From an uncultured Chloroflexia bacterium (GTDB taxonomy: Bacteria > Chloroflexota > Anaerolineae > B4-G1 > SLSP01): a DNA stretch of 64,000 bases. Below are positions 25,281-38,769 of this stretch, piece after piece (the first letter of the stretch is position 1; every line of letters starts with the position of its first letter). Position numbers and translations under genes: made by a program. The notes beneath the pieces are model-generated. The model searched no databases. It was not told the DNA's origin and was given only the letters and a program-made list of their open reading frames with translations. The stretch lies in the NCBI GenBank assembly GCA_963751345.1, contig CAVVUS010000014.1:1-64000 (forward strand), read 5' to 3'.

Positions 25281-26630
25281 TTATGCAATCGGCCAGACGT
25301 CCGACGTCTGTTTGGGGAAGAGGACATCTAGCAACAACCGCGCCTCGCGGTTGCCGAAGCAATCCGGGAAGGCGTGATCCAACTCCGCAAACGAGCGGTA
25401 CCCGAAAAGAAGCTGGAGGAAGACCAGACCGGGGAACCGCGCCATCCCCTCGTCGCCGCCGACGGTGGGCTGCCAAGGCTCAATCGAGACGAGGCGCCCA
25501 CCTTCGAGAACGAGTTTGACGCCGTCGCGGTAGAAGCTCAGCGTCAGCGTCCCGCTGTGACCAACCAGCGCCGACGCAGCGAGGCGCTCCTCCAGCACCG
25601 GGGCGATCGTGCTCAGGAAATCGGGAACGTCCGGGACCCGAATGTACCACGCCCACGGCCTGCGGGTCCCGAGCAGCCAATCCGCCGCGACCGTGTAGGC
25701 GGGATGCTCGGTACCCAGCAAGAACCCGACCGTCGTGAAGGGTGTAGGATCCGGTGACGATGAGGCGTAAGGCGCCAGCTCGGCACCGACCGTCTTGAGA
25801 TAGCGGAGCACCGTTGGGGTGACTGACCACCAGGATGTACCGGGCTTGAGCTCATACCGCGATGCCAGGAAGCTGTTGCCCCAGCGTACGTTGGGATGGG
25901 CAAGGAAGCCTACCGCCTCGCCGTCGGACGTCTCAATGATCCGCCATGCCTGCGCCGCAGCGCTCTCCGGGCTATGGCCTGACAGCTCGTAGCGCCATAG
26001 TGCCGCATCCCGTACACATCTGAGCAGCCGGCGTTGCTCACCGTGCGCGTCGACATCAGCGATGAAGTCCAGGTCCTGCACCTCGGCCGGGCGGACGTGA
26101 TACCGCTCCACCTCGCCCTCCCTCAACATTGGCACGCTCGTCACCGGGCCACCGCGCCCGCCGTGAAGGTCCACCGCCATCTCGTACCCGAACTGGCGGT
26201 AGTACCAGGCGATGCCCGTAATGGCTTGCACCTTGTGGCCGCGCTCGGCGCTCCATTGGTGGAGCACCTCGAACTGCGAACGGACCAGACCACGCCGCCG
26301 GTAGTCGGGATGGGTGCCCACCAGCTCGGGGCGGCCCACACCAAACTCCATCCCGGCATAGGACCAGGTCTGGGAGATGAGGTTGGTGCTGGACACAATG
26401 GTGCCCTGCGCCGTATCCTCGACGACCAGGAAGTCGCCGACATCGAATGTCGGATGGGCGCCGGACATCAGGTCGCGGACCCACGCCCCGACGTGGACGT
26501 CGGGAGTATCCCAACCCGAATCGCTGTGGACGCGGGCATCGAAATCCGCCAGCGCGTCGGTGTCCGCGCGGGTGGCGCGGCGGAGGATCAAGCCGTCGCC
26601 CAAGTCCCTCAGATACGTTGTGTCAGCCAT
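25281..26630 (-). CDS. GNAT family N-acetyltransferase (long, Eis-like)
   Basis: [14 protein letters not shown] acetyl-CoA motif, YYRQFGYE; C-terminal LLFGYRS SCP2-like tail. Confidence 0.75.
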
Positions 26631-26701
26631 CGGGTCACCTCTCATGACGTATGTTCCAGGCGGATCTGTGATCCGCTTGGAACTCGTGTCGTAGCGTGCT
26701 T

Positions 26702-27763
26702 TCACGCCCGCGCCAGCGTCTCCAGTGCGTGAGCCAGGATCACGATCGACCTCCGGAAATCGTCGATCTGGATATGCTCCCTAGGCGTATGGTCCAGCGA
26801 GGAATCGCCCGGGCCATAGGCTACCATTGGACATTCCCAGACCGGCCCGACAGTGTTCATGTCCGAGGTCCCGGTCTTGAGCTTGAACCGGGGACGCCCA
26901 CCCTCCGCGCGAATGGCCCTCAACAGAGCCCGAACGGGCGGGGTGTTCTTGTCGGATTGATAGGCCGGGTCGGAGCCGAGGAACTTGAGCTCGGCGCCGT
27001 TGCTCCACGTCTCCATGCTCGCCTGAAGGGCGTCGATGCTGAAGTCGGGCGGGAGCCGGGCCACGATGTTCATCTCGACGAAGTCGTAGAGCCCGTCGCT
27101 GTAGGTGTGCAGATCACGCAGGGCGGGGTCGAGCGTGTTGTAACGCCCGTTCTTACCCTGGTTGTAAGCGTAGGCATAGCGACGCAGCCGGTTCCAGAAA
27201 TAGACGGCGTGCTCGGCGGGGCCGGGTGCCTCGCCGGCGCTGTGACCGCCGGGCTGTACCAACTTGTACTCCATATTGAGCATCCCCTTGTAGCCCAGGG
27301 TGATGCTGTCCCAGTCGCTCGGCTCGCCGATGATGGCGCACTCCGGCGCCGCCATCGTCTGGGCGAGGTAGTGCGCCCCCCAGCCGTGAGATTCCTCCTC
27401 CACGGCGCCGATCACGGTCACCCGCGCCGGCCCCAGTCTCGGCGCCACCCGCGCCGCCGCCAGGACGAAGGTGGCCAGCGGGCCCTTGGCATCCACCGCG
27501 CCGCGCCCGTAGAGCTTGCCGTCGTCCCACCGCACGGGGATGAAGCCGGGGACGGTATCCATGTGACCGAGCAGCACGATCTCGCGGGTCGCGTCGGGAT
27601 TGCCGACCGTGCCCACGACGTTGCCGGCCTCGTCGCGATCGGCGCGGAAGCCCAGCTTTCGCATCTGGGTGACCAGGTACTCGGCGAAGATGTCCTCGCC
27701 CCCTGAGGGGCTGGGAATTGATAGCAGCTTCTCGAGAAATTCAGCTTCGTCCACTTCTTCCAC
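26702..27763 (-). CDS. lysK: [LysW]-ornithine/lysine hydrolase (M20)
   Basis: PSPSGGE, LLGHMDTVPG, GRGAVDAKG, VEEE, IIGEPS, KTGTSDMN, YGPGDSSLDHTP. Confidence 0.9.
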   Translation of the reverse strand: MEEVDEAEFLEKLLSIPSPSGGEDIFAEYLVTQMRKLGFRADRDEAGNVVGTVGNPDATREIVLLGHMDTVPGFIPVRWDDGKLYGRGAVDAKGPLATFVLAAARVAPRLGPARVTVIGAVEEESHGWGAHYLAQTMAAPECAIIGEPSDWDSITLGYKGMLNMEYKLVQPGGHSAGEAPGPAEHAVYFWNRLRRYAYAYNQGKNGRYNTLDPALRDLHTYSDGLYDFVEMNIVARLPPDFSIDALQASMETWSNGAELKFLGSDPAYQSDKNTPPVRALLRAIRAEGGRPRFKLKTGTSDMNTVGPVWECPMVAYGPGDSSLDHTPREHIQIDDFRRSIVILAHALETLARA

Positions 27764-27797
27764 CTTGTCTTCCTGCGCTGCTCCGGTTCCCCTCCCA

Positions 27798-27874
27798 AGT
27801 GCCGGGGACTGCGGACGCCGTCCGAGGCGCTTTCGCCGTCCAGGCGCTCGCCGTCCAGGCGCGTCCCCGGCACT
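27798..27874. repeat. Hairpin element carrying three CGCCGTCC(G)AGGCGC units
   Basis: AGTGCCGGGGAC (27798-27809) / GTCCCCGGCACT (27863-27874) arms with units at 27816, 27834 and 27849. Confidence 0.7.
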
Positions 27875-30800
27875 CAAGGACACGGTGCGTCCCCCAGCCG
27901 GCTGACGGTCAGCGTCTGGGCGCGCAGGTAGCGGATCGCCGCTACGGTAGCGCGGAGCGCGACCAGGGTCGTGACATAGGGCACGTGATGCTCCAGCGCC
28001 GCGGCCCGGATGCGATAGCCGGACGTGCGGGCCAGATGCCACGGCAGGGGCACGCCGCGCTGTTGCACGCTGCCTGGCGCAGCGGGACTCACGACGCCGC
28101 CCGCTGCCACCGTAGGTGGAGGGCGTGTTGACCACGAGTTGGACCTTGTCCTGGACGATGATGTCGACGCAGTCGGGTCGCCCCTCGCCCACTTTGTGCA
28201 CCTCTCGTGCCGCCACGCCCATCGCCTTGAGAACGCGTGCGGTGCCCCGCGTCGCGACGACGTCGAAGCCCAGGTCACCGAGCTGAGCGACCAGCGAGAT
28301 GCCGTCACGCTTGTCCGTGTCCGCCAGGCTCACCAGCACCGTCCCCTGCGTCGGGAGCGGGTTGCTGGCCGCAATCTGCGCCTTGGCGAAAGCCTCGGGG
28401 AAGCTCTGTCCGAAGCTCATCACCTCGCCCGTGGAACGCATCTCGGGCCCAAGCAGGACGTCGGCGCCCTGGAAGCGACCGAAGGGCAGCACGACCTCCT
28501 TGACCGAGGATTGCCCCGGCCAGGGCATAGGGGCATGGCCCATCTCGTCCAGATAGGTCGCGAAGTCCGTCGACGGCGGGACGTGTGAGGGATAGGGCCA
28601 GTACGGCGCGAGCAATTCGCTGAGGGGCCGGCCCACGAGGATCTTCGCGGCCAACTTGGCCACGGGAATCCCGATCGCCTTGCTGACGTAGGGCACGGTG
28701 CGCGAGGCGCGCGGGTTGGCCTCCAGCACGTAGAGGTCGTTACCCCGGATGGCCATCTGGATGTTGACCAGTCCCACAGCACCCAAAGCCCGTACGAGGC
28801 TGGCGACCGAGGTCTCGATCCGATCGACCATCGTGTTCGATAGACTCACCGGTGGCATCACGCACGCGGAGTCGCCCGAATGCACGCCGGCCTCCTCGAT
28901 CTGCTCCATCAGCCCGGCGATCCACACGTCCCTACCATCGGAAAGGACATCGACGTCGAGCTCCACCGCGCCCTCGAGGAAGCGGTCGATGAGCACAGGG
29001 TAGCCCGGAGAGACCCGAGCGGCCTCGACGATGTAGTGGCGCAACTCCTCGGCGTTGTTCACGATCTCCATGGCGCGTCCCCCCAGCACAAAGCTGGGCC
29101 GGAGGAGCACCGGGTAGCCCAACCGCTCCGCCACCTCCAGCGCCTCCTCAACCGTTGAGGCCAGTCCATAGGGCGGGCTGTGGAGGCCAACTTCGTCCAA
29201 CAAGGCGCCGAACTGCTCGCGATCCTCGGCCATCTCAATCGCGGCGAAATCGATCCCCAGGAGGGGAATGTGGTGATCGACCAGCGCGCGGGCAAGCTTG
29301 AGCGGCGTCTGCCCGCCAAATCCCACGACGACGCCTTTGGGCTTCTCGTGCTCGACGATGCCCAGCACGTCCTCGACGGTCAGCGGCTCGAAATAGAGAC
29401 GGTCGGCGGTGTCGTAGTCGGTGGAAACGGTCTCGGGATTGGAGTTGACCATGATGACCTCATAGCCCTCCTCCTGGAGTGCCCAGACGGCGTGGACGTT
29501 GGCATAGTCGAACTCCACGCCCTGACCGATCCGGTTGGGGCCGGAGCCCAGGATCACGACCTTCGGCCGGTCCGTCGGCTCGGCCTCATTCTCGGTTCCG
29601 CCATAGGTCGAGTAGAAGTAGGGCGTGTAGGCCTCAAACTCGGCGGCACACGTGTCGACCATCTTGTAGACGGGGCGCACGCCCAGCGCGTTACGGCGCT
29701 CGCGAACCTCGTCCTCAGAACAGTCGAAGACCTCGCTCAACTCCAAGATCGCTGAACCCCCAGGCTTTGGCCTGCGTCAGGGCCTCGCGGTCCAGGGCCT
29801 CCCAGGGCATCTCGCGCAGCGCCGACTCGAGTTGGACGAACTGCGCCAGCTCGGTCAGGAACCAGCGGTCGATATGGGTGAACGTGTGGATCTCGTCGAC
29901 CGTATAGCCGCGGCGCAGCGCAGCGTAGATGTAGGCCAGGCGCTCGGGCGTGGGGTTGGCGAGATACTCGGGGATCCGATCGAAATCGAGGTCGGGGGTC
30001 GGGTCCAACTCCAGCGAGCGGACCGCCTTGCCGAGCGCCTCCTTGAAGGTGCGCCCGATAGCCATCGCCTCACCCACGGACTTCATCTGCGTGGTCAGCC
30101 GCGGGTCGGCGCCGGGGAACTTCTCCAACTGGAACCGCGGCATCTTGACCACCACGTAGTCTAGGGTGGGCTCAAACGCCGCCGTCGTACGGCGGGTGAT
30201 GTCGTTGGCGACCTCGTCGAGACGATAACCGACGGCGAGCAGCGCCGCGACCTTGGCAATGGGATAGCCGGTGGCCTTGGAGGCCAGAGCCGACGAGCGC
30301 GAGACACGCGGATTCATCTCGATGACCACCATCCGCCCCGACTCGGGATCAATCGCGAACTGGATATTCGACCCGCCGGTATCCACGCCGATGGCGCGCA
30401 GTACCGCAATTGAGGCGTCGCGCATCCTCTGGTACTCGCGATCGGTGAGCGTCTGGGCCGGGGCGACGGTGATCGAGTCGCCGGTATGGATGCCCATCGG
30501 ATCGAGGTTCTCGATCGAGCAGACGATGATGGCGTTGTCAGCGTGGTCGCGCATCACCTCCATCTCGTACTCTTTCCAGCCGATCACGGATTCCTCGAGC
30601 AGCACGGTATGGGTGGGGCTCTCGATCAGGCCGCGGGCCACGATCTGGGTGAGCTCCTCGGCGTTGTAGGCGATGCCGCCGCCGGTCCCACCCAACGTGA
30701 AACTGGGGCGCGCGATCAGCGGGTACCCAAGCTCGTCGGCAGTGGACAGCGCCTCGGGCAGGTTGGCAATCTGGCGACTTGCCGGCACCTCGAGGCCGAT

Positions 30801-31214
30801 GTGCTGCATCGTCTCCTTGAAGAGCGCGCGGTCCTCCGCCAACTGAATGGCCCTGAAGGGCGCTCCGATGAGCTCCACGCCGTAACGCTCCAAAATCCCG
30901 GTCTCGGAGAGCGCCACCGCGAGGTTCAGCGCGGTCTGGCCCCCCAGGGTCGGCAGAAGGGCATCGGGCTGCTCCTTCCGGATGATGGCTTCGAGGAACT
31001 CGACGGTGAGGGGCTCGATATAGACGGCGTCGGAGAGCTCGGGGTCGGTCATGATGGTCGCGGAGTTGGCGTTGACCACGATCAGGCGATAGCCGGCCTC
31101 CCTCAGCGCCTTGAGTGCCTGGGTGCCGGAGTAGTCGAACTCCGCGGCCTGGCCGATGACGATCGGGCCTGATCCGATGATGAGAATGGATTCGATGTCG
31201 GTGCGCCTCGGCAT
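27874..31214 (-). CDS. carB: Carbamoyl-phosphate synthase large subunit (frameshifts ~29745 and ~28090)
   Basis: [60 protein letters not shown] domain. Confidence 0.95.
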
Positions 31215-34822: not shown

Positions 34823-35878
34823 TCAGGCTAATCCCTGGCCATAAATAGGATGTAGTCCCGGGAACTCGAGCCCCAGCTTCTCATTCCAGCCGTACATCAC
34901 GTTCATCGACTGGACGGCGCTGCCCGCGGCGCCCTTCATCAGGTTGTCGATCGCCGAAATGACCACGAGGCGACCGCCCTCGGGATCGGCCGCGAAGCCG
35001 ATGTCACAGTAGTTCGAGCCGGAGAGCAGCTTGGGTTCCGGATAGCGGTGGATGCCGCGGCGCGACCGCACCAACCGCACGAAGGGCTCGTCGTTGTAGT
35101 CCTCGCGGAACATACGCCAGACATCGCGCTCGTCGATAGGTTCCTTGAGCAGGCAGTGACATGTCGCCAGCGCGCCGCGCACGATGCCGACGGAGGTCAC
35201 GCTGAAGTGAAAGTTGGGCTTGGCGGGATCGAGATCCAGCTCCTGGATCATCTCGCCGATGTGCCGGTGGCCGAAGGGCGAATAGGTGCGCACGACGTCG
35301 GCACGCTCGGGGTGATGCGAGGCCGGGCTCGGATGATGTCCGCCCTCCGACGATCCGACCTTGACCTCGACCACGGTCTCGCGCACGATGCCACGCTTGT
35401 AGAGCGGGCGCAGCGCCAGGTTAGTCACGGTGGCGTTGCAGCCCACACCGCTGACGTACTTCGCCCCGGCCATCTCCTCGCGGTGAAACTCGGGCAGGCC
35501 GTAGACGAAGCGCTCCAACCACTCGGGATGGGGGTGCTTGTGCTCGTACCAGCGCTCGTAGTCGGCGGGGTTCTTGAGGCGGAAGTCACCCGAGAGATCC
35601 ACAATACGCTCGGCCATACCGGCATATTTGTCGATCTGCTCCCAGGCTGTCCCGTGAGGCAAGGCCAGAAAGAGCAAGTCGCAGGGGGCGAGTTCGGAGA
35701 GCGGCACGAATTGGAGGGTCGTCTGCCCGCGCAGATTGGGGTGGACGAAGTAGGCGAACTGCCCGGCGTAGGTCTCCGACGTGATCTGGACGACCTCGAC
35801 CTCTGGGTGGAACAACAACAGGCGCAGGAGCTCACCACCCGCATAACCCGAAGCGCCGACAATAGCTGCCTTGATCAT
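34823..35878 (-). CDS. lysY: [LysW]-glutamyl/aminoadipyl phosphate reductase (ArgC/LysY)
   Basis: [49 protein letters not shown]. Confidence 0.9.
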
Positions 35879-36729
35879 ATCGCTTTCCCCTCCGCCACCT
35901 GAAGCACGTAATCCACAATCTTGGCCGCGATGTCCACGTCGGTCGCGTTGCGAGCGCCGTGGAACTCCGGCGTATGGTTGACCTCGTTGACCAGAAGGTC
36001 ACCGTCAGCATCTTCCAGCAAATCGACGGCGACGATCCCCCCACCCACGGCCTTCGCAGCCCCCACGGACAGATGCGCAATCTCGTCGGTGACCGGGCAG
36101 GGCACAGGCTCACCGCCCAGCGCAGTATTGGTGATCCAGTGCTCGGACTGGCGGTAGATCGCGTAGACGACCTCATCGCCCGCCACCATCACGCGGATAT
36201 CGCGTCCGGGCTTGTCCACGTACTCCTGGATATAGGCCACGCCGTGAAGATAGCCACCCAGGGTGCTCTTGTGCTCCAGCAAGGCCTCGGCGGCGTCACG
36301 ATCATTGACCCGCGCCAGGAGCCTGCCCCACGAGCCGAAAAGCGGCTTGAGCACGACGGGGTAGCCCATGGCCTCGATGGCCGCCAGTCCCGACTCGGGC
36401 GTGAACGCCACGGCCGTCCTGGGAATCGGCAGCCCCGCCTCCTGGAGCGCGGCGCTCGTCAAGAGCTTGTCCCCGCACACTGAGATGGTCTGGTGTGGGC
36501 TGACCGTCGGGATACCCAGACCCTCAAGCCACCGCGAGATGTAGTAGGCATTCGTGTGACTCAAGCAGCGCACCAGGAACGCGTCATAGGCGCCAGGGGA
36601 CGTGCCGTCGAACCGGAACGTCAGCTCGCGGGGATCGAACCGGTCATAGGCCACGCCCCGGTCGTCAAGTGCCGCGGTGATCAGTTTCTCCTCAACCCGC
36701 TTGCGGGAATAGAGCACCCCAATCTTCAT
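35875..36729 (-). CDS. lysX: LysX/ArgX ATP-grasp ligase (amino acid--LysW ligase)
   Basis: [45 protein letters not shown]. Confidence 0.9.
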
Positions 36730-36741
36730 GCAGGACCTCCG

Positions 36742-36912
36742 TCACTCGCCCCAGTCTTCCTCGACCTCAGGCGCCATCTCAACCTCAAGCGGGTTCACGG
36801 AGACGACCTCCAATTCGACGCCGCAATCGGGGCACACAATGATCTCGCTCTCCTCGACATCGGGGCTCAAGGTCAGCTCTGCTTCACACTCAGGACAGAA
36901 TACGGTTGCCAT
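36742..36912 (-). CDS. lysW: Amino-group carrier protein LysW (56 aa, absent from the ORF track)
   Basis: [56 protein letters not shown]: two CxxC motifs and diagnostic EDWGE C-terminus. Confidence 0.97.
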
Positions 36913-36964
36913 CAGGAATCTCCCTTCCGATATAGTTTAGTACTGCGTACACGCGCTTTGACAT

Positions 36965-36998
36965 AGAAAAAGCCAGTCCCTGTCTGGGACTGGCTTTT
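36965..36998 (-). terminator. Intrinsic terminator in the 5' leader of the LysW/arg operon (attenuator)
   Basis: Minus strand AAAAGCCAGTCCC-AGACA-GGGACTGGC-TTTTT, about 50 nt upstream of the lysW ATG. Confidence 0.85.
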
Positions 36999-37021
36999 AC
37001 ACCCTTGTAAGCGATCTCGTG

Positions 37022-37108
37022 CTAGCTACGCACAGAGGCGCCGACCCAGCAGGCCTGGTTCAGCATAGCTCGAGCTCGTCGCTTTAGATCAAAAATGGTT
37101 GTTATCAT
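37022..37108 (-). CDS. Putative attenuator leader peptide MITTIFDLKRRARAMLNQACWVGASVRS
   Basis: ATG just downstream of the -10; AAG CGA CGA GCT CGA codon cluster; stop 24 nt before the terminator. Confidence 0.65.
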   Translation of the reverse strand: MITTIFDLKRRARAMLNQACWVGASVRS

Positions 37109-37123
37109 TTCAACTCGTCGAAG

Positions 37124-37151
37124 AGCATACCATAGCTCTTGTTTTTGTCAA
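37124..37151 (-). promoter_or_regulatory. sigma70 promoter of the LysW/arg operon
   Basis: TTGACA (37151-37146), 16 nt, TG-extended TATGCT (37129-37124). Confidence 0.75.
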
Positions 37152-37173
37152 CCCGGCGGGGCGAAAATCGTCA

Positions 37174-37222
37174 TTGACACAGCCATACAGGTCGCTATAA
37201 TGAGGATAGAACATATGTTCTA
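37174..37222 (+). promoter_or_regulatory. Consensus sigma70 promoter with LexA (SOS) box at the transcription start
   Basis: TTGACA 37174-37179, TATAAT 37196-37201, perfect palindrome TAGAACATATGTTCTA 37207-37222 (GAAC-N4-GTTC). Confidence 0.85.
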
Positions 37223-37248
37223 CCTATAGAGTGAACGGGAGGCGAGTT

Positions 37249-38347
37249 ATGTCGCAGCAAGTCAGGCCGTATCTGGAATATCAAGCCGACCGCGTCGAAG
37301 CGGTCCTCGCCGCCCACCGCGCTCCCGGGCGCGTCACCGGCGGGACCGTCGGCCCCCGCCTCATCCGCTTCTTCCTCAACCCCGACCCCGCCACCCGCTT
37401 CTCCGCCATCAAGCGCCTCGCCGACGACCTCGCCCTCGCCATGCGCGTCTCCGCCCTCAACGTCGACCGCGACGAACACGGCGTCGTCCTCTCCTTCGCC
37501 AATCCCGATCCCAAGCCCGTCGAGCTGCTCGCGCTCCTCGACGATGTCCTCCCCATCCCCCCGGCTACCGCCGTCCTCGGCCTCACCGACGCCGGCCTCC
37601 CCCTCCTCGCCCGCCTCTCTGCCCCCGACGTCGCCCACGTCCTCGTCGCCGGCACCACCGGCTCCGGCAAGTCCGTGCTCCTGCGCACTATGGCCACCTC
37701 CCTCTGTCTCACCAACTCCCCCGACCGCCTTGCGCCTGCTGTGCATCGATCCCAAGGGCCGCACCTTCCGCTCGCTCGCTCCTGCTCCCCACCTCGCCCG
37801 TCCCATCATCTCCGATCCCCTCGAGGCCGGCGAGGCACTCCGCTCGCTCCTGCGCACCATGCAGGTCCGCGACCGCCGCGGCGAGCTCCCCGGTGAGGCT
37901 ACCCCGCGCATCGTGGTCTGCATCGACGAGCTTGCCGATCTGATCATGGCCGGCGGCGATCCGGTCGTCGAGACCCTCACCCGCCTCGCCCAACGCGGGC
38001 GCGAGGCCGGCATCCATCTGGTTGCCGCCACCCAGCATCCTGCCGCCGCGATTCTCGGCAGTCTCATGCGCGCCAACTTCCCCCTGCGCCTTATCGGGCG
38101 CGTCGCCTCCGCCCAGGATGCCTTGGTCGCTTGCGGGCGCGGCGGCACCGAGGCGCATCTGCTCCACGGGCGCGGTGACTTCCTCGCGGTCTCCGGTGGC
38201 GATCTGCCGATTCGTTTCCAGGTGGCCAATCTGCGCGAGCGCGATGTCCGCGCGCAAGTGGCGCAGGTGGGCACGCAGGAGAGCGTGTTGGCCCTGCCCG
38301 TGCGTGACGCGTCACGCGTCTCGAAAGGATCCACCCATGCGACGTAG
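37249..38347 (+). CDS. FtsK/SpoIIIE-type ATPase with alpha+beta motor only (no N-terminal TM, no gamma domain); frameshift ~37730
   Basis: VGPRLIRF...LADDLALAM alpha domain, HVLVAGTTGSGKS, IDPKG, IVVCIDELADL, GREAGIHLVAATQHP, GRGDFL. Confidence 0.85.
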
Positions 38348-38769
38348 ATACGTTGAGGATGAACCAGCGGCGTACGAGCCGCACACGCCGCTGCGCGCCC
38401 GGCTGGCGCGCTTTTTCGGGCTGATGGGTGCGCTCTTCGCCATCACCATGGCCGTGATCGTCACCCAGAAGTTGAGCCACGACTCGCTGGCGCTCTTGAT
38501 CGGGCTCACCTGCGGCGTGCTGGCGATGCTGCCCACGCTGGCTCTGGGGGTCTTCATCTGGCGCCGCGAGGATGCCCGCCGTGCAGCAGCGTGAGCAGGC
38601 CCAGCGCCAGCCCGCGTATCCGGCGACTCCGCCGGTCATCGTGATCTCCCCTCAGGCTTTGCCGGGATACGGCGCCTCAGCACGGCCTTCGGGCAGACCG
38701 AGGCATACAAATCCCTGGGCACCGTCCTCCTCCGGGCGGCAGTTCAAGATCGTGGGCGGCGACGACTGA
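38337..38769 (+). CDS. Small 2-TM membrane protein with Pro/Gln-rich tail (frameshift ~38580)
   Basis: Overlaps the FtsK stop; FFGLMGALFAITMAVIV and LALLIGLTCGVLAMLPTLALGVFIW; tail PPVIVISP...RQFKIVGGDD. Confidence 0.65.

Follow-up and report, generated by a model that had tools for sequence, protein, structure and literature searches.

The window, the whole stretch of 64,000 nucleotides of DNA that was analysed, carries on its minus strand an arginine operon of roughly 14 kb with the gene order lysW-lysX-argC-argB-argD-carAB-lysK-argG-argH. Gene identities were assigned by NCBIfam matches, and the genes are arranged as follows:

36912-36742, minus strand: lysW (amino-group carrier protein), at the head of the operon; TIGR01206 match of 68.8 bits (cut-off 53.2)
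36729-22432, minus strand: the rest of the operon taken as one block; NCBIfam matches
36729-35875, minus strand: lysX/argX; NCBIfam
35878-34823, minus strand: argC/lysY; NCBIfam
34633-33815, minus strand: argB/lysZ; NCBIfam
33780-32599, minus strand: argD/lysJ; NCBIfam
32572-31241, minus strand: carA; NCBIfam
31214-26702, minus strand: carB as two ORFs, together with a lysK-like hydrolase domain; NCBIfam
26705-25281, minus strand: ORF without assignment
25327-23990, minus strand: argG; NCBIfam
within 24150-22432, minus strand: argH; NCBIfam

Upstream of lysW lies a leader element composed of a promoter, a short upstream open reading frame (uORF) and a set of overlapping RNA segments that end in an intrinsic terminator:

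37151-37124, minus strand: promoter, with TTGACA at 37151-37146, a 16-nt spacer and TATGCT at 37129-37124
37108-37022, minus strand: leader ORF of 28 codons plus TAG (ATG at 37108, TAG at 37024-37022), peptide MITTIFDLKRRARAMLNQACWVGASVRS
37081-37070, minus strand: Arg box CGA CGA GCT CGA (Arg Arg Ala Arg), with AAG at 37084-37082 immediately before it
37084-37063, minus strand: segment 1, the 5′ strand of the clamp helix (anti-antiterminator), containing the Arg codons
37031-37009, minus strand: 3′ strand of the clamp helix, covering the uORF stop codon, from the minimum-energy helices
37063-37041, minus strand: consensus hairpin A, CTGAACCAG (37063-37055) with CTGGGTCGG (37049-37041)
37053-37040, minus strand: segment 2, the 5′ strand of the antiterminator, complementary to segment 3
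36994-36979, minus strand: segment 3, the antiterminator partner, formed by the 5′ arm and loop of the terminator and pairing with 37053-37040
36998-36965, minus strand: intrinsic terminator, a 13-bp stem (36998-36986/36980-36968) with a 5-nt loop and T5

Re-extraction by script recovered all of these parts at the minus-strand coordinates listed, and the promoter, the 28-codon uORF, the AAG CGA CGA GCT CGA run, the terminator and the antiterminator of about 12 bp lie exactly where a preliminary description of the locus had placed them. The promoter agrees with the consensus at 10 of 12 positions and carries a TG one base upstream of TATGCT; it is one of only two promoter-like sites in 35500-38500, where shuffled sequences lead one to expect 0.5 +/- 0.6, and TTGACA together with TGGTAT-type hexamers recurs at the promoter position in relatives. 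Transcription probably starts at about 37116-37119, which would give a 5′ untranslated region of only about 8-11 nt, and no Shine-Dalgarno motif precedes the window uORF. Among the related leaders, a Shine-Dalgarno-like motif stands before 17 of 29 argG-type and 9 of 16 other lysW-type uORFs, as assigned by an automatic picker that misassigned some rows. The terminator (-22.3 kcal/mol) is kept in 17/17 sequences of the window's genus; a simple terminator scan of the region did not list this hairpin, because the A-T pairs at the base of its stem consume four of the T's that the scan's rule counts. Folding of the 159-nt leader gives -58.8 kcal/mol against -44.8 +/- 4.0 for shuffled sequences (n=200; z -3.5; 0/200 as good), and in the minimum-energy fold 37084-37063 pairs with 37031-37009. 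Hairpin A has seven pairs in the RNAalifold consensus of the 17 genus sequences and -6.9 kcal/mol on its own, while the alternative antiterminator (37053-37040/36994-36979) comprises 12 bp at -18.1 kcal/mol, reaching -22.5 kcal/mol if the arms are extended slightly.

In bacteria, control of arg genes is normally attributed to the repressor ArgR, the presence of which had been raised as a point to check in the preliminary description. No argR was detected by PF02863 or TIGR01529 in the window's genome (93% complete), and ArgR was found in 0/145 genomes of the order by a search that was positive in 8/14 model genomes serving as control. A covariance model of the element (R1) was searched in genomes of the order and the class. 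At E <= 0.01 it matches in 65/145 genomes and 25/58 genera of the order, the other 80/145 genomes giving no match, and at E <= 0.001 in 10/150 further genomes sampled across the class (uncultured Anaerolineae); the window's own genome holds a single full copy, at the window locus. The more distant full-length matches number 51; in 16 of them the downstream genes are lysW-lysX (arg type) and in 23 the downstream gene is argG, and at nine class-level loci the element precedes argG in seven cases and lysW in one. A genome-wide regular-expression scan for Arg-rich short ORFs followed by a terminator was set aside, its 45 candidates being mostly out-of-frame artefacts in this 63% GC genome; it found a CGA box at the window locus only. 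Upstream of lysW, the combination of uORF, hairpin and terminator occurs in 23/29 related loci and is therefore more than a chance arrangement. We consider it likely that the element is a ribosome-mediated transcription attenuator which reports the supply of charged Arg-tRNA and controls the whole arginine operon. The comparative tests agree with this core of the preliminary description, which had proposed a trp/his-type, Arg-sensing leader-peptide attenuator for a LysW-type arg operon.

In the window's lineage all Arg codons of the box are CGA. This codon had been described beforehand as usually rare in high-GC genomes. It is not rare here, accounting for 10.8% of Arg codons (8.1 per 1000 codons). 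A low-threshold ARAGORN run returned 339 tRNAs that are mostly false, and its TCG calls are not real. Arg codons in the box were counted by hand from the leader peptides of 68 arg-operon leaders, because automatic uORF pickers mis-picked several rows (L001, L004, L011, L019, L025, L027, L029, L097, L111, L122, L123, L129 and others); the box holds at least three Arg codons in 55 leaders, two in 11 and one in 2.

A basic stretch of this kind could also act as a nascent peptide, RRAR (an R-x-R motif) arresting the ribosome in response to free arginine or ornithine, or to an antibiotic, and not to tRNA charging. Nascent-peptide arrest is exemplified by the fungal arginine attenuator peptide (AAP), SpeFL, TnaC and the Erm leaders. 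The sole conserved residues of the window peptide are indeed basic and close together; R/K-x-R/K motifs are problem sequences for macrolide-bound ribosomes according to the accessible portion of PMC12583479, and the two Arg codons of the Salmonella speF leader are regulatory according to the accessible portion of PMC6386406. The leaders described here are nonetheless not conserved over most of the peptide, as AAP, SpeFL and TnaC are: only the K/R box is conserved. Known arrest peptides require a longer conserved peptide, whereas here the N-terminal codons vary freely among related leaders and the part C-terminal to the box is frame-shifted, and the box itself varies (RRAR, RRR, RRPR, KRSR, RRP). 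Stalling on free arginine would, moreover, open the operon at high arginine, which is the wrong sign for biosynthesis. Macrolide-type R-x-R sensing was rejected because the downstream genes are biosynthetic, being arg genes and not resistance genes. Sensing by the nascent peptide is, in our judgement, improbable.

Conservation at the nucleotide level brings up a different explanation, an untranslated RNA switch in which the conserved CGACGAG..CGA and the hairpin region are recognised by a protein or a small ligand that selects terminator or antiterminator, the reading frame being incidental. Long runs (CTGAACCAG, CTGGGTCGG and the terminator arm) do not vary within the genus, the nucleotides after the box stay constant among relatives while the peptide that they encode shifts frame, the Arg box doubles as one strand of a helix, and the lack of a Shine-Dalgarno motif before the window uORF would also suit such a switch. 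The reading frame nevertheless behaves as if it mattered. The conserved Arg-rich uORF that the preliminary description expected in relatives was found, with an ATG in the frame of the Arg box, 21-33 nt upstream of it, in 22/23 distinct lysW-upstream leaders (the 23rd has GTG), against 1/23 and 0/23 for the other two frames. In the box, the third base of the middle codon is variable (GCT, GCG, GCC; also GTG and GGC), and in other genera the box nucleotides differ yet Arg is kept, its codons becoming CGT, CGC or AGG synonymously, with replacement of CGN by AGG included (for example CGT CGC CCT CGT; CGT CGC GCC CGT; CGT CGT ACC CGC; AGG CGT CGC). In other families, the leader stop codon occupies a fixed place inside the antiterminator strand. 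No Rfam family reaches its gathering threshold in 36400-37700. The best match there is Thr_leader, with 24.0 bits against a gathering score of 55 and over the terminator hairpin only, and the five matches at E <= 10 include no T-box, no Lysine riboswitch and no other leader family; a T-box or riboswitch match is what the preliminary description had named as speaking against attenuation.

An untranslated switch would also leave it unexplained that Lys codons, or Lys and Arg codons together, appear precisely where the genes downstream are different. In the same genus, the paralogous aminoadipate (lysine) cluster is preceded by a uORF ending in AAG AAG CCG GAC CGC TAG at 18/18 loci, and the window's genome itself has a second leader with tandem Lys codons on contig C37, before its aminoadipate lysine cluster (homocitrate synthase ... 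lysW). Within the same RNA family, six leaders whose box is of the K R K P R type precede the gene for a substrate-binding protein whose best match is the Lys/Arg/Orn family, and two genomes with tandem lysX genes have the boxes K S K R and S K R R. As far as sequence comparison can tell, the regulatory codon content of the leaders tracks the genes controlled (Arg, Lys or mixed). We accordingly regard a ligand-operated switch with an incidental frame as quite improbable. The suggestion that the single AAG before the Arg box adds Lys sensing to Arg sensing did not hold up either: 2/17 genus members have TAC or AAC in the place of this codon, and dual sensing is unsupported at this locus, the separate lysine cluster of the genome having its own Lys-codon leader.

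It is very unlikely that the promoter and terminator constitute an independent gene for a small RNA or small protein, or that the terminator merely insulates an arg operon served by its own downstream promoter: a terminated leader RNA of ~150 nt is expected under any model, and attenuator RNAs act in trans in other bacteria (accessible portion of PMC7968998), but the scan found no promoter-like site between the terminator (36965) and lysW (36912), this spacer shows no conservation among relatives, the element stays directly before the first gene of the arg operon, be it lysW or argG, and the leader's conserved ability to pair with the terminator arm would be purposeless.

For a ribosome-mediated attenuator, the relevant structures are the clamp with hairpin A and the terminator on one side and the antiterminator on the other. 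Clamp-type pairing is found in 14/17 genus leader folds; its counterpart in 30 other-family leaders shows 72.6% paired cells and three compensatory pairs. When clamp, hairpin A and terminator are taken together in these 30 leaders, 89.2% of cells are paired, as against 31-55% when the segments are slid, with eight pairs showing compensatory change and a covariation score matched by 0/500 shuffles. The antiterminator of the other-family leaders reaches 87.2% paired cells against 31-56% when slid, with four compensatory pairs, and covariation links one terminator column to each of its two alternative partners. Within the window's genus (17 sequences), 92.5% of antiterminator cells are paired and there is no covariation: six pairs are invariant, and only two are changed on both sides, a count reached by 167/500 shuffles. 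The advantage of the genus duplex over shuffled sequences is modest (z -0.3 to -3.5), and another window of sequence pairs better in 1/17. The support for the antiterminator within this genus, as judged from these alignments, is conserved complementarity only. In a third lineage (5 sequences), the helix differs in sequence and the logic is the same; the energies of its antiterminator duplexes lie between -23.8 and -27.6 kcal/mol, with z between -3.3 and -4.4. A cross-lineage duplex test revealed a cognate preference in two lineages and none in the window's genus, whose leader strand gives -18.6 kcal/mol with third-lineage terminators versus -17.7 with its own. As for the covarying stems that the preliminary description proposed to look for, both alternative structures persist among relatives; compensatory changes occur at some pairs in the other families, and the genus antiterminator shows no covariation.

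The effect of ribosome position was computed by masking the ribosome footprint in equilibrium folds and counting the sequences in which the antiterminator arises. Placing the A site on the last codon of the box raises this count from 3/17 without a ribosome to 14/17 in the genus and from 0/5 to 5/5 in the third lineage; in the other families it is 5/30 without a ribosome, 19/30 at the last box codon and 0/30 with the ribosome on the stop codon. In the same kind of fold, placing the A site on the second CGA does not yield the antiterminator in the window leader; a ribosome on the stop codon does, as it does in 7/17 genus leaders.

Computation shows which elements are present and how far they are conserved, that the frame is open, that codons change synonymously, that the alternative pairings can form and that the element accompanies arg genes. 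From this we infer a course of events, in which the start site, translation of the uORF, stalling of the ribosome, and how far and in which direction the operon responds are all predicted. RNA polymerase would start from the promoter at 37151-37124, and a ribosome would load on the leader ORF near the 5′ end of the transcript. With ample Arg-tRNA, the ribosome would pass CGA CGA GCT CGA and cover the antiterminator strand, or, in other families, halt on the stop codon that lies inside this strand. Behind the passing ribosome the clamp (the Arg-box region with 37031-37009) and hairpin A would re-form, the terminator at 36998-36965 would fold, and polymerase would stop ahead of lysW. When Arg-tRNA is scarce, the ribosome would stall at the CGA codons, melt the clamp and reach the foot of hairpin A, freeing 37053-37040 to pair with 36994-36979 and thereby allowing read-through into lysW...argH. 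A leader that is left untranslated would form the clamp and be terminated. Of the 20 sequencing runs listed for the sequence, all are DNA metagenomes, with 0.40 or less of the sequence words, and none is an RNA run.

The predicted device resembles the leader-peptide attenuators of enterobacteria (trpL, hisL, leuL, thrL, pheL and the ilv leaders) in having a short ORF after the promoter with clustered codons for the amino acid of the operon, alternative 1:2, 2:3 and 3:4 pairings, and an intrinsic terminator before the first gene; in other families of the order, the antiterminator strand contains the leader's stop codon, which agrees with the trp model. It differs from them in its amino acid, arginine, in the LysW-carrier type of the arg operon, in the lack of RNA sequence similarity, in the nearly leaderless uORF of the window and in its host, an uncultured Anaerolineae lineage. 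In Thermus thermophilus, the lysine (aminoadipate/LysW) cluster is reportedly controlled by a leader-peptide attenuator. That leader shares with the window element the basic-amino-acid codons in the leader peptide and termination control of a LysW-pathway cluster, whereas the window element has Arg codons instead of Lys codons and serves the arginine branch (carAB, argG, argH); in the window's genome, a leader of the Thermus Lys-codon type is the one on contig C37 and not the one at the window locus. The fungal AAP of arg-2/CPA1 is a conserved peptide that stalls ribosomes at high free arginine and acts on translation. It likewise uses a uORF to link arginine-pathway expression to arginine, unlike the window peptide in that the latter is conserved only in its Arg codons and has transcription termination as its predicted output. 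A further comparison is with orf34 of the Salmonella speF leader (Ben-Zvi et al. 2019, PMC6386406), which has a pair of consecutive Arg codons and where, in the part of that article accessible to us, a ribosome pausing at adjacent Arg codons under low arginine refolds the downstream RNA. The output described there is mRNA stability (RNase G) and Rho or translation effects on a polyamine gene, in contrast to the intrinsic terminator before an arginine-synthesis operon in the window. For attenuation in general, a model is given by Elf and Ehrenberg (PMC1183508, accessible portion).

The window lineage is without tRNA-Arg(ACG) or TadA, so that CGA would be read only by the single-copy tRNA-Arg(UCG). 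A broader proposal can be put forward tentatively, at slightly less than even probability: in this ArgR-less class, attenuators re-coded by codon swap for Arg synthesis, Lys synthesis and, with mixed boxes, basic amino acid uptake may form an RNA-based basic-amino-acid regulon, in which the window lineage would sense one isoacceptor, CGA via single-copy tRNA-Arg(UCG).

Arginine is, to our knowledge, absent from the textbook list of amino acids with leader-peptide attenuation. The preliminary description knew of no bacterial Arg leader-peptide attenuator, and none was found in a search of openly accessible articles. The element offers a concrete, testable answer to the regulation of arginine synthesis in a lineage without ArgR, and it would allow dozens of unannotated leaders in Anaerolineae metagenome-assembled genomes, before lysW, argG or a basic-amino-acid transporter gene, to be annotated. 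Its relatives provide a natural series of attenuators differing mainly in their regulatory codons (Arg, Lys or mixed), and such a codon-variant series would be useful for studies of attenuator specificity and for building amino-acid sensors. Arg codons confined to CGA and decoded by one tRNA present in single copy are relevant to the theory of isoacceptor choice (PMC1183508, accessible portion); if true, single-isoacceptor CGA sensing would be a natural test of whether attenuators choose the synonymous codon that is most sensitive to starvation.

Ahead of lysW, the promoter, upstream open reading frame (uORF), run of Arg codons, terminator and 12-bp antiterminator of the preliminary description were all recovered, as follows:

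37151-37124, minus strand: promoter, TTGACA and TATGCT spaced 16 nt apart, with a TG 1 nt upstream
37108 (ATG) to 37024-37022 (TAG), minus strand: putative, nearly leaderless leader uORF MITTIFDLKRRARAMLNQACWVGASVRS, 28 codons
37084-37070, minus strand: AAG CGA CGA GCT CGA, read from the sequence and re-extracted by script
37053-37040 with 36994-36979, minus strand: antiterminator, 12 bp, -18.1 kcal/mol (-22.5 kcal/mol if the arms are extended slightly)
36998-36965, minus strand: terminator hairpin, 13 bp, T5 tract, -22.3 kcal/mol
36912, minus strand: ATG start codon of lysW, the first gene of the operon

Only two promoter-like sites occur across 35500-38500, this promoter being one of them, against 0.5 ± 0.6 in shuffled sequences; the folding energy of the 159-nt leader is -58.8 kcal/mol, compared with -44.8 ± 4.0 kcal/mol in 200 shuffles. 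A simple terminator scan of the region did not list the 36998-36965 hairpin, since T's that the rule counts are taken up in the hairpin's A-T pairs. That promoter and terminator delimit an independent small-RNA gene is unlikely, given their fixed position before the first arginine gene and the lack of any promoter-like site in the spacer between terminator and lysW. The gene upstream of the leader is divergent. On that side lie a perfect promoter (TTGACA-16-TATAAT, 37174-37201, plus strand) and, 3' of it, the palindrome GAACATATGTTC (37209-37220, plus strand), which has the form of a Gram-positive-type LexA box. An FtsK-like ATPase follows, with matches in two overlapping ORFs of different frame (37231-37896 and 37544-38347, plus strand), which suggests a frameshift or an assembly error.

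The operon, of about 14.5 kb, is one for arginine synthesis with the LysW carrier, its NCBIfam-assigned order 3' of the leader being lysW, lysX/argX, argC/lysY, argB/lysZ, argD/lysJ, carA, carB, an unassigned ORF, argG and argH. The carB region (26702-31214, minus strand) consists of two overlapping ORFs, one (31214-29715) encoding the N-terminal half and the other, from 29746, the C-terminal half; the latter continues without a stop into a domain resembling LysK, the [LysW]-lysine hydrolase, 1014 aa in total, an arrangement that could represent a split gene, a fused gene or a frameshift. Between this domain and argG, the 474-codon ORF at 25281-26705 (minus strand) matches nothing in NCBIfam at an E-value better than 8e-6, and no ornithine carbamoyltransferase gene was seen within the operon. 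The check for argR proposed in the preliminary description found none in the window's genome or in any of 145 genomes from the order, with a control that was positive in 8 of 14 model genomes; ArgR control of the operon is therefore ruled out as far as the search allows.

Among related genomes, LysX is present in 40 of 41, and lysW adjoins lysX at 29 of the 30 loci examined. The conserved Arg-codon uORF anticipated in relatives was borne out: the box CGA CGA GNN CGA, followed by a strong terminator, lies upstream at 23 of 29 lysW-lysX loci, counts that are not independent since the genomes are related to each other. Among the six box-less loci, those of genomes G029 and G039 have lysW inside a longer operon with the leader at its head, ahead of argG; that of G025 carries a variant leader, and locus L028 is a lysine-type paralogue. 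An ATG in frame with the box occurs 21-33 nt 5' of it in 22 of 23 distinct sequences (GTG in the other), compared with 1/23 and 0/23 at the same distance in the other two frames. Codons 5' of the box vary freely among close relatives, and the middle box codon varies at its third base (GCT, GCG, GCC), with GTG and GGC also found. Beyond the box the peptide is frame-shifted among relatives (AMLNQACWVG, AIAEPGLLGR, ETAEPACWVG), and the nucleotides CTGAACCAG and CTGGGTCGG are invariant despite the differing frames. Such a pattern is expected for a translated leader in which the Arg box would contain the sole selected codons and the 3' part would be selected as RNA. A sensor based on nascent-peptide arrest is unlikely, as there is no peptide conservation outside the box and such a sensor would give the wrong sign of regulation.

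Folding of the window's leader and its relatives, a check proposed in the preliminary description, yielded two alternative states, clamp and terminator versus antiterminator. The minimum-energy fold of the window's leader pairs 37084-37063 with 37031-37009, a clamp enclosing the stretch that holds consensus hairpin A (37063-37055 with 37049-37041); a similar clamp appears in 14 of 17 folds from the genus, for which RNAalifold retains hairpin A and the terminator. The genus antiterminator has 92.5% of cells paired, against 16-58% when slid; it displays no covariation, six pairs being invariant and shuffles doing equally well. For other families, we used 30 leaders, omitting 15 from other genera of the window's family and loci L109, L115, L121, L128, L131 and L132. 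Here the clamp, hairpin A and terminator together have 89.2% of cells paired (31-55% when slid), with eight compensatory pairs and a covariation score reached by 0 of 500 shuffles, and the antiterminator, whose strand contains the leader stop codon, has 87.2% paired (31-56% when slid), with four compensatory pairs. Column 167, in the terminator arm, covaries with both its terminator partner (183) and its antiterminator partner (111). A third lineage (n=5) achieves the same logic with a quite different long 1:2 helix containing the box, its antiterminator duplex reaching -23.8 to -27.6 kcal/mol (z -3.3 to -4.4). When leaders and terminators were cross-paired between lineages, the cognate pair was favoured in two lineages, a preference absent for the window's genus.

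The effect of a ribosome was modelled with equilibrium folds of transcripts cut before the terminator 3' arm, with a 28-nt footprint masked.

Sequences forming the antiterminator in each ribosome state
Window's genus: no ribosome, 3/17; A site on last box codon, 14/17; ribosome on stop codon, 7/17
Third lineage: no ribosome, 0/5; A site on last box codon, 5/5; ribosome on stop codon, 1/5
Other families: no ribosome, 5/30; A site on last box codon, 19/30; ribosome on stop codon, 0/30

For the window's leader, the folds agree with expectation when the A site is on the first or the last CGA, not when it is on the second; its antiterminator also forms when the ribosome occupies the stop codon, a state in which timing must therefore play a part. 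We propose that, when Arg-tRNA is short, the ribosome would wait on the box, opening the clamp and allowing the antiterminator to form and the polymerase to read through; when Arg-tRNA is plentiful, the ribosome would cover or pass the antiterminator strand and the terminator would form; a leader left untranslated would form the clamp and terminate. This model, which rests on sequence comparison and folding, is the classical one for attenuation.

A covariance model of 17 sequences from the genus (excluding L002, which is almost identical to the window's leader) finds one full copy in the window's own genome, matches in 65 of 145 genomes and 25 of 58 genera of the order (E <= 0.01), and matches in 10 of 150 other sampled genomes across the class (E <= 0.001). 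Scanning species representatives for the exact pattern gave 15 loci, all labelled as being from uncultured Anaerolineae, Anaerolineales, Thermoflexales or Chloroflexia MAGs. Downstream of the 51 distant full-length matches lie argG (23), lysW-lysX of the arginine type (16), a substrate-binding protein gene (6), glutamine-synthetase-like genes (2, both weak matches), a homocitrate-synthase-like gene (1) or a gene not assigned (3); of the nine class-level loci, seven precede argG and one lysW, and one is a terminator-like partial match only. Distant members keep the uORF with synonymous Arg codons (CGT CGC CCT CGT, CGT CGC GCC CGT, CGT CGT ACC CGC, AGG CGT CGC). By hand count of the peptides, the box holds at least three Arg codons in 55, two in 11 and one in 2 of 68 arginine-operon leaders (17 + 5 + 17 + 29; L109, truncated, L103, at a contig end, and rows not linked to arginine genes were omitted).

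The preliminary description held CGA to be usually rare in high-GC genomes, which is not the case here: in 2079 long ORFs it accounts for 10.8% of Arg codons, at 8.1 per 1000, and ranks fourth of the six. All box Arg codons are CGA in 17 of 17 genus leaders, and three successive CGA would arise at genome frequency with a chance of about 0.001 by simple arithmetic. The tRNA-Arg genes of the assembly have GCG (in two copies), CCG, TCT or CCT as their anticodon, and an ACG gene is absent; a tRNA 5' half with a TCG anticodon loop follows tRNA-His and is cut by the end of contig C48 (C48:1-125), and the complete His-Arg(TCG) pair occurs in three related genomes. Since no ACG tRNA was found, the best TadA score in the genome is 26.7 bits against a cut-off of 150, and part of a TCG tRNA is present, the tRNA that decodes CGA is probably tRNA-Arg(UCG), encoded in a single copy. 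Decoding of CGN in the lineage may do without inosine, an unusual feature for bacteria. Since CGT or CGC takes its place in other genera, CGA reflects a habit of this lineage, one that the family does not require.

Box codons also track the genes controlled. The six binding-protein leaders (L107, L108, L119, L120, L126, L127) have boxes K R K P R, K R K R R or K R S x R (for example in the context D K R K P R); the best family match of the periplasmic substrate-binding protein is Lys/Arg/Orn, at 192.5 bits under its cut-off of 256, which suggests that uptake of basic amino acids may be attenuated too. Leaders L123 and L124 (genomes G025 and G066), at clusters with two tandem lysX paralogues behind one lysW, have both Lys and Arg codons (K S K R and S K R R, in the contexts N K S K R C and E S K R R P), which would fit a shared lysine and arginine pathway. 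The window's genome has a second lysW-lysX pair, 56% identical, on contig C37, assigned to a lysine (aminoadipate) cluster because it lies behind homocitrate-synthase- and homoisocitrate-dehydrogenase-like genes; its leader is:

C37:158096-158330, plus strand: lysine-cluster leader comprising a separate promoter, a uORF of 16 codons with K K P D R stop at its end, and a terminator

In the genus, a 15-22-codon uORF with a free N-terminus occurs in 18 of 18 such loci (L160-L177, from 18 of 22 genomes with a match), its end invariant as AAG AAG CCG GAC CGC TAG before a hairpin and terminator. At several such loci, C37 among them, a further Lys-rich leader appears to lie in series, ahead of the homocitrate-synthase-like gene. 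With an Arg box in one and AAG AAG in the other, the only conserved codons in the leaders of the two paralogous LysW pathways match the end product. A non-translated RNA switch is thus an improbable account of the leader, being opposed by this match as well as by the frame test and the synonymous changes.

A Lys-codon leader in Thermus is reportedly a precedent. Our search of the main texts of openly accessible literature found no description of an Arg-codon leader-peptide attenuator before bacterial arginine-synthesis genes. By term search, the text of Naville and Gautheret 2010 (PMC2965389) contains neither 'arginine' nor Chloroflexi, and the uORF attenuators found in the parts consulted of Brewer et al. 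2021 (PMC8632094) concern cysS and aroF, not arginine genes. Ben-Zvi et al. 2019 (PMC6386406) describe pausing at Arg codons in the speF leader, as proposed here, but with a different output. The mechanism is of a classical, already known kind; the novelty of this predicted arginine leader lies in its amino acid, its RNA family and its host lineage, and in the proposed codon-swapped regulon.
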